A stretch of 64,000 nucleotides of DNA from Escherichia coli (lineage in GTDB: Bacteria; Pseudomonadota; Gammaproteobacteria; Enterobacterales; Enterobacteriaceae), in the NCBI RefSeq assembly GCF_003991155.1, contig NZ_CP031293.1. One strand, written 5' to 3'. A model generated the notes under the pieces. That model saw only the letters and a program-made list of their open reading frames with translations, was not told where the DNA came from and made no database searches. Made by a program: the position numbers and the translations under genes. This document shows positions 57,236 through 57,492 of the stretch, piece by piece (position 1 is the stretch's first letter; each line of letters opens with the position of its first letter).

Positions 57236-57492
57236 TTAACAGAATCCTTTTAATTATCGTTAAACGTATTTTCTAAACGAATTTTAAACGACGTCATTTA
57301 TAAATGACATACTGTTTTTAAAATGGAATGGTGATTAAACACAATGAGAAAAATAGATGAAATAATATTATTTATCGATATGTGATCGAAGTCGAAATGA
57401 AATATAAGGTGAACTACTGGTATTTGAAATTTATTTTTTATATTGTCGGAATTTATCTGATTAACTGCCGGGCCGTAGACCCGACAATTATT

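Follow-up and report, generated by a model that had tools for sequence, protein, structure and literature searches.

The question raised by the DNA between yddG and an adjacent porin gene of Escherichia coli is whether its extreme A/T content marks a foreign, silenced promoter, or is simply what the regulatory region of such a porin looks like. The spacer lies in a 64,000-nucleotide stretch of the E. coli chromosome (hereafter, the window), which is a 100% match to strain FDAARGOS_497, where both yddG and the porin are annotated. Genes in the window are ordered narZ, narU, two LRR genes, the porin, yddG, fdnGHI, and yddM. With a probability of roughly 0.78, we consider the spacer to be ancestral and to regulate the Escherichia ortholog of ompD, with the 3′ hairpin of yddG at its yddG end. 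The units from which the argument is built are:

Positions 57493 to 58374, minus strand: yddG, encoding an aromatic amino acid exporter; the upstream neighbour of the porin gene, on the same strand.
Positions 57236 to 57492, minus strand: the yddG–porin intergenic spacer under study (257 bp, 27.6% G+C), bounded by the stop codon of yddG (57493) and the start codon of the porin gene (57235).
Positions 56135 to 57235, minus strand: the porin gene (366 aa), encoding a full-length OmpC/OmpF-family porin; the syntenic ompD ortholog.
Positions 56100 to 56123, minus strand: a canonical intrinsic terminator, a 9-bp G+C-rich stem followed by the T-run TTTTTGATTT, 12 nt after the porin stop.
Positions 53387 to 55971, minus strand: the two LRR-protein genes (33.8% and 35.4% G+C), which are the atypical part of "O-island 62" and specific to E. 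coli.

K-12 has this spacer as well (MG1655 1,546,029–1,546,287), with few substitutions, in front of yddL, a 96-aa N-terminal remnant of the porin. The segment from yddG to narU corresponds to O-island 62 of EHEC EDL933 (z2239-z2242), for which a G+C content of 33–36% was reported and which was described as "probably acquired relatively recently" (PMC3079680). The two LRR ORFs (53387–54643 and 54706–55971, minus strand) encode proteins of 418 and 421 aa, similar to the LRR domain found in type III effectors of the SlrP/IpaH type (E = 1e-10 and 8e-8), but both without an E3-ligase domain. RefSeq annotates the second gene only as a 288-bp partial pseudogene, yet an intact 421-aa ORF with a GTG start is present here. 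Upstream of narU lies a palindrome, GTTACATTTAGTAAC in the minus-strand reading (53246–53260 on the plus strand), which is kept in E. coli and E. albertii and is possibly a regulator-binding site for narU.

Elsewhere in the window, a second variable segment (35856–41668) holds an orphan T6SS vgrG, then ISEc1, and further on an ISAs1 transposase gene with a frameshift; a small hypothetical gene lies between these last two. Immediately upstream of yddM (higA) there is an ORF for a 92-aa HigB/RelE-like toxin (63531–63809, minus strand), which the matching RefSeq record leaves unannotated, whereas that of another strain includes it. At the start of the window (1–365), gap (gapC) is annotated as a frameshifted pseudogene, and the coding region of ydcO contains a perfect CRP core palindrome, TGTGAAATTAATCACA (13343–13358, plus strand).

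That the DNA upstream of the porin is strongly A/T-rich, as the initial annotation had it, is plainly the case. At 27.6% G+C, compared with 49.3% for the whole window, the spacer is the most A/T-rich of the 40 intergenic regions (mean 47.8% G+C). Only 0.09% of 257-bp segments in the 64 kb are as low in G+C; the global minimum (24.9%) starts at 57205, and positions 57236–57416 also stand at 24.9%. The A/T string quoted in that annotation is found at about 57316–57377, although the wording "almost entirely A/T" overstates the composition of a region that is 72% A+T. Similar values occur upstream of the core porin genes of K-12 (G+C of 34% for ompF, 33% for ompC, 38% for phoE, and 30% for ompN), and the orthologous yddG-ompD spacers of other genera are all A/T-rich, with 30–39% G+C over 450–670 bp. 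Judged by these comparisons, the extreme A/T content has been conserved in this promoter region and is a general feature of the DNA upstream of porin genes. The A/T-richness marks a long, protein-binding regulatory region, and neither horizontal transfer nor intrinsic curvature; very low upstream G+C, taken by itself, is an unreliable sign of foreign DNA or of curvature.

The ancestry of the porin and its promoter can be read from the neighbouring species. In a scan of one genome per species, the order fdnG-yddG-porin was found at 29 loci in six genera, comprising Escherichia albertii, Citrobacter, Salmonella (subsp. arizonae), Enterobacter, Lelliottia, and Intestinirhabdus. The gene adjacent to yddG is named ompD in Enterobacter (PMC11874173) and likewise in Salmonella (Santiviago et al. 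2002, as relayed in a paper that cites it). The porin encoded in the window is 93% identical to that of E. albertii, 70–72% to OmpD orthologs, 68% to the prophage porin NmpC, and 56–60% to OmpC, OmpF, OmpN, and PhoE; its signal peptide, MKLK(L/I)VAV, is of the OmpD type. Because of the synteny with yddG, the identity to OmpD, and the shared signal peptide, we regard it as the positional ortholog of Salmonella/Enterobacter ompD, represented by the yddL remnant in K-12 and by z2239 in EHEC. The usual E. coli counterpart of OmpD in the literature is nmpC (PMC3333887); NmpC, whose gene is prophage-borne in K-12, is closer to OmpD in sequence (75–80%) than the present porin is (70–72%).

The DNA upstream of the porin can also be aligned across genera (in an alignment of 11 sequences and a larger one of 30 distinct sequences). 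Since this DNA is syntenic, alignable, and A/T-rich in all of the orthologs, and core K-12 porin genes are equally A/T-rich upstream, the promoter is ancestral, and the earlier description of it as horizontally acquired must be given up. It is only the LRR genes, which neither E. albertii nor the other genera have between the porin and narU, and which are thus specific to E. coli, that look foreign, and not the spacer. Escherichia spacers measure about 257 bp, whereas those of other genera extend over 450–670 bp, and some ancestral upstream elements are therefore missing. What the spacer does contain, in the order of transcription, is the following:

Positions 57462 to 57490, minus strand: a 13-bp stem-loop, 3 nt after the yddG stop (−18.3 kcal/mol, z = −3.2).
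Positions 57417 to 57461, minus strand: spacer DNA common to all E. coli; 57417 is a presence/absence breakpoint.
Positions 57381 to 57396, minus strand: a CRP-like site, TTCGACTTCGATCACA, matching 8 of the 10 core positions of TGTGA-N6-TCACA, with its centre at −80.5 from the putative transcription start.
Positions 57369 to 57378, minus strand: an H-NS-motif-like decamer, TCGATAAATA, a 9/10 match to tCGATAAATT, at −61 to −70.
Positions 57339 to 57344, minus strand: a −35-like hexamer, TTGTGT, within a conserved ATTG block (TTGAAn in other genera, TTGTTT in K-12), separated from the −10 by an 18-bp spacer.
Positions 57315 to 57320, minus strand: a −10-like hexamer, TAAAAA, in the conserved block TTTAAAAA.
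Position 57308, minus strand: the putative transcription start, a G; in the alignment it falls where a start would leave S. arizonae with a leader of 69 nt.
Positions 57236 to 57307, minus strand: the rest of a 73-nt 5′ UTR, with a predicted 5′-terminal hairpin, GUCAUUUAUAAAUGAC (57308 to 57293), and the Shine-Dalgarno sequence AAGGA (57249 to 57245).

These conserved promoter, start-site, and Shine-Dalgarno blocks bear out the assignment of the spacer as the upstream regulatory region of the porin. Other conserved blocks are TG(C/T)CATT at 57309–57303, CGTTTA...GTTTAG, and AATTA(A/T)AAGGATT, the last of which holds the Shine-Dalgarno sequence. The published 5′ UTR of Salmonella ompD runs from −69 to +3 (PMC3333887), and since the leader of S. 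arizonae is then also 69 nt long, we infer by alignment from Salmonella that transcription in E. coli starts at 57308. A second promoter-like pair, ATGTCA-18-TAAAAT at 57310 to 57281, counts against this reading. Compared with the other genera, the −35 of Escherichia is poorer, and the base just downstream of the −10 is C rather than T; the Escherichia promoter is therefore likely to be weak or conditional. In genomic SELEX, the yddL-yddG spacer is not among the spacers bound by the sigma-70 holoenzyme alone, the sigma-70 "constitutive" sites (PMC3946193), which fits an activator-dependent or weak promoter.

The candidate for such an activator site is the CRP-like sequence. As a statistically significant match we rejected it, given that sites with two core mismatches number 15 in the window, compared with 27.7 expected, which leaves conservation as the argument for it. 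The GA-N4-GATCACA block (57393–57381) is invariant in 30 orthologous sequences, and its centre falls at −80.5 in E. coli and Enterobacter, and at −81.5 in Citrobacter and Salmonella. Class I CRP sites are centred near −61.5, −71.5, −82.5, or −92.5, and the centre here is thus 1–2 bp off −82.5. Salmonella ompD is reportedly CRP-dependent; this, together with the invariance and fixed spacing of the block in otherwise diverged DNA, supports a role for CRP at the site.

The leader offers less. With RNAalifold, the one structure recovered was a hairpin of five pairs that showed almost no covariation, and the fold of the E. coli leader was not better than those of shuffled sequences (z = −0.83). An Rfam scan of 52.5–59 kb returned a chance microRNA match only (E = 0.97), and at the porin spacer it detected no divergently transcribed sRNA gene of the micF or micC kind. 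At porin codons 5–10 (57206–57222, minus strand), GCGGUGGU stands in place of the GCAGUGGC of other genera. The latter is complementary to the seed at the 5′ end of the sRNA RybB, and pairing of RybB with GCGGUGGU would survive through two G-U wobbles only, so that the Escherichia porin may be less strongly controlled by sRNA.

At the other end of the spacer, the stem-loop behind yddG differs in sequence among this strain, K-12, and E. albertii, with substitutions that preserve its pairing. It is probably the 3′-end or terminator hairpin of yddG. It is not a canonical terminator, however, as there is no U-tract on this strand (the tail reads AUCAGAUAAAUU) and, with the T-run missing, a terminator scan made no call; some read-through from yddG is therefore possible. 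The tail of the E. albertii hairpin is more U-rich; in E. coli, an insertion of 11 bp has come between the stem and the U-rich tail that E. albertii keeps. In contrast, the terminator that follows the porin gene (56100–56123) is canonical, and because it stands between the porin and the LRR genes, the two are probably not controlled together. A porin-LRR operon was considered and is made unlikely by the same terminator. The expectation that the porin and LRR genes would be conditionally expressed remains reasonable as to conditional expression, but shared control from this region does not. The deletion that created yddL in K-12 took out most of the porin and its terminator, which accounts for the annotation of a "yddLKJ operon" in that strain.

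Taken together, these elements suggest how the region would work. Read along the minus strand from the yddG stop, the region has first the conserved 13-bp stem-loop, a spacer of ~45 bp, and the CRP-like site at −80.5, then an A/T-rich stretch that includes the H-NS-motif-like decamer, the weak TTGTGT-18-TAAAAA promoter of the sigma-70 type, and the putative start at 57308, and finally the 73-nt leader with its 5′-terminal hairpin and Shine-Dalgarno sequence, which leads into the porin ATG. Transcription of the porin would be activator-dependent, with cAMP-CRP acting from a class-I-type position, as is reported for Salmonella ompD, and would in Escherichia probably be damped by the degraded −35 and −10. 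Coating of the 75% A+T DNA by H-NS could act as an additional brake. The transcript would be monocistronic and end at the terminator right after the porin, without serving the LRR genes.

The porin is not universal in the species; strains with an intact copy include FDAARGOS_497, EDL933, and 042. Its upstream region is present in 4,262 of 5,426 complete E. coli genomes, and ~21% are without the porin and LRR genes, with yddG joined directly to narU. The polymorphism is placed at window positions 57417 and 53260; one genome carries IS1 at the site, along with an LRR remnant. The empty allele retains 12 nt that resemble the porin-narU spacer of E. albertii and, compared with that species, this indicates two separate events from an albertii-like ancestor, namely a deletion of ompD that would have given the empty allele in some E. 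coli, and an insertion of LRR genes that would have given the occupied allele in others. We also considered that the porin promoter had been re-acquired with a partial copy of itself beside narU, in view of the repeats GAATGKKGATTAAACA and GATATGTG near both ends of the island. We rejected this on finding the same GTTACATnTnGTAAC...TAAT block upstream of narU in E. albertii, a species without the LRR genes; the block is thus ancestral narU upstream DNA.

Three other explanations of the A/T content compete with an ancestral regulatory region. We regard it as very improbable that the spacer is an intrinsically curved element, in which phased A/T tracts bend the DNA and modulate the binding of RNA polymerase or nucleoid proteins. 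The phased A- and T-tracts reported in the initial annotation could not be confirmed: the spacer does hold seven runs of at least four A or T, several of them 4–6 bases long, but their spacings (21, 13, 33, 5, 29, and 85 bp) are irregular, with two (21 and 33 bp) near multiples of the helical turn, and AA/TT Fourier power at 10–11.25 bp does not rise above dinucleotide shuffles, 26% of which reach it for the whole region and 13% for 57236–57416. The curved DNA proposed there fared no better. In a Bolshoy-Trifonov wedge model, the spacer has an end-to-end/contour ratio of 0.956 and is straighter than 80% of the 257-bp segments of the window, as well as most composition-matched shuffles; its predicted curvature is below the window average, and the model reproduced its positive and negative controls (0.27–0.35 for phased A6, 0.98 for unphased A6, and 0.45 for A4T4 vs. 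0.99 for T4A4). The spacer is moreover rich in TpA steps, which favour flexibility over a coherent bend (argument in PMC2094087). It is also unlikely, if less so, that we are looking at decaying, functionless DNA, a spacer that drifted to A/T under relaxed selection while Escherichia was losing the porin, and whose composition has no regulatory meaning. Such decay would agree with the truncation of the porin in K-12 and its absence from about 21% of complete genomes, with −35 and −10 elements poorer than those of other genera, with the shortening of the spacer to 257 bp, and with a protein that is further from OmpD (70%) than the prophage-encoded NmpC is (75–80%); Okeke et al. note that it is not known if any version of the island yields functional proteins. 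Yet the porin ORF is intact here and remains 93% identical to that of E. albertii, E. coli, K-12, and E. albertii have all kept the CRP-like, −10, and start-site blocks as well as the Shine-Dalgarno sequence, and the spacers are almost as A/T-rich in genera where ompD encodes a major porin.

The explanation that comes closest is the one advanced originally, namely that this is a xenogeneic promoter, where H-NS would nucleate on the A/T-rich DNA and spread from there, so that the porin (and the LRR genes) stayed silent until an anti-silencer or environmental signal intervened. We give it somewhat less than an even chance. The promoter part, at 75% A+T, is the DNA lowest in G+C in the 64 kb, and has 2.3 times as many TpA steps as the window average; promoter-like hexamer pairs number seven where 2.2 are expected, as is typical of H-NS-covered DNA. 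The decamer TCGATAAATA fits tCGATAAATT as well (9/10) as the proV sites do. The adjoining 3-kb LRR segment, at 30–37% G+C, has been described as a recently acquired island (PMC3079680), the frequency of transposon insertions in K-12 yddL is anomalously low, alongside that of many known A/T-rich silent genes (PMC5821084), and the promoter region of another porin, phoE-proB, has an H-NS SELEX site (PMC3946193). Against this, the promoter and the porin are ancestral rather than acquired, and the homologous, similarly A/T-rich promoter of Salmonella drives the most abundant porin of that organism, so that composition of this kind does not by itself mean silencing. The 9/10 motif match arises in 19% of composition-matched shuffles, and TCGATAAATA is specific to E. 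coli, being absent from E. albertii and the other genera. Neither of the neighbouring yddK/yddL and narU/yddJ spacers was marked as an H-NS site in genomic SELEX, in which the gapC-cybB and ydcI-ydcJ spacers were sites, though much less A/T-rich than the spacer studied here (PMC3946193); yddG, yddL, narU, and fdnG are not listed in the tables of Higashi 2016. Binding of H-NS within the spacer, as distinct from a foreign origin of the promoter, is plausible, and on these sequence features we would put it at roughly even odds.

The ancestral regulatory region and H-NS control could also be combined. On this account, yddL/z2239 would be a cryptic, "quiescent" porin, whose ancestral CRP-dependent ompD promoter was weakened and brought under H-NS control in Escherichia, with help from the E. 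coli-specific decamer (−61 to −70) and from the A/T-rich LRR genes inserted alongside, and the porin would be made only upon an anti-silencer or host signal. We think this doubtful, but if it were true, an unrecognised conditional porin would be added to the outer-membrane repertoire of E. coli, and yddL, not the prophage gene nmpC, would be the true counterpart of OmpD. As an ordinary regulatory region, the spacer itself matters little. The locus deserves attention rather for the porin, since the yddL fragment of K-12 and the full-length gene of most other strains are the positional counterpart of ompD, whose product bears on antibiotic entry and virulence in Salmonella/Enterobacter. The O-island 62/yddL locus is already known, as are the promoter and leader of the Salmonella ortholog and the way A/T-rich promoters generally behave; the explicit identification of yddL/z2239 as the syntenic ompD ortholog, with its promoter anatomy, may be mildly new.

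Among known systems, the closest is ompD of Salmonella enterica. The Escherichia gene occupies the same position downstream of yddG, is preceded by an A/T-rich spacer with alignable −35, −10, start-site, and Shine-Dalgarno blocks and a GATCACA block about 81 bp upstream, and encodes the same type of signal peptide. It differs from Salmonella ompD in having a spacer of about 257 bp rather than about 550 bp, a −35 of TTGTGT rather than TTGAAC, and a C rather than a T after the −10, in both cases the worse match. In addition, the long 5′ leader stem of Salmonella (GCCATTG...CAATGG) is replaced in Escherichia by the local palindrome GUCAUUUAUAAAUGAC, and the protein is only about 70% identical to OmpD, the most abundant Salmonella porin.

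The comparison with porins that are normally silent is looser. Those parts of the literature that treat quiescent, H-NS-silenced porin genes name ompS1 and ompS2 of S. Typhi, which are relieved by LeuO, and ompN of E. coli (PMC4264507, PMC5745476). Like these, the porin described here is a non-major paralog with very A/T-rich upstream DNA (30% G+C for K-12 ompN); unlike them, it has a homologous promoter that is highly active in Salmonella. The proU and bgl nucleation sites of H-NS provide a similar contrast. The spacer shares with them one 9/10 motif match in 75% A+T DNA, within −300 to +100 of a start codon, which is the context given by Lang et al. 2007, but that match is single and statistically unremarkable, and strong matches do not cluster, the 4.4-kb island having two with no more than one mismatch where 0.8 would be expected. 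The spacers of ompF, ompC, and phoE have no recognisable homology to that between yddG and the porin, which at 27.6% G+C is also more extreme in composition. They are, however, long and A/T-rich as well (33–38% G+C), and they precede core, vertically inherited porin genes.
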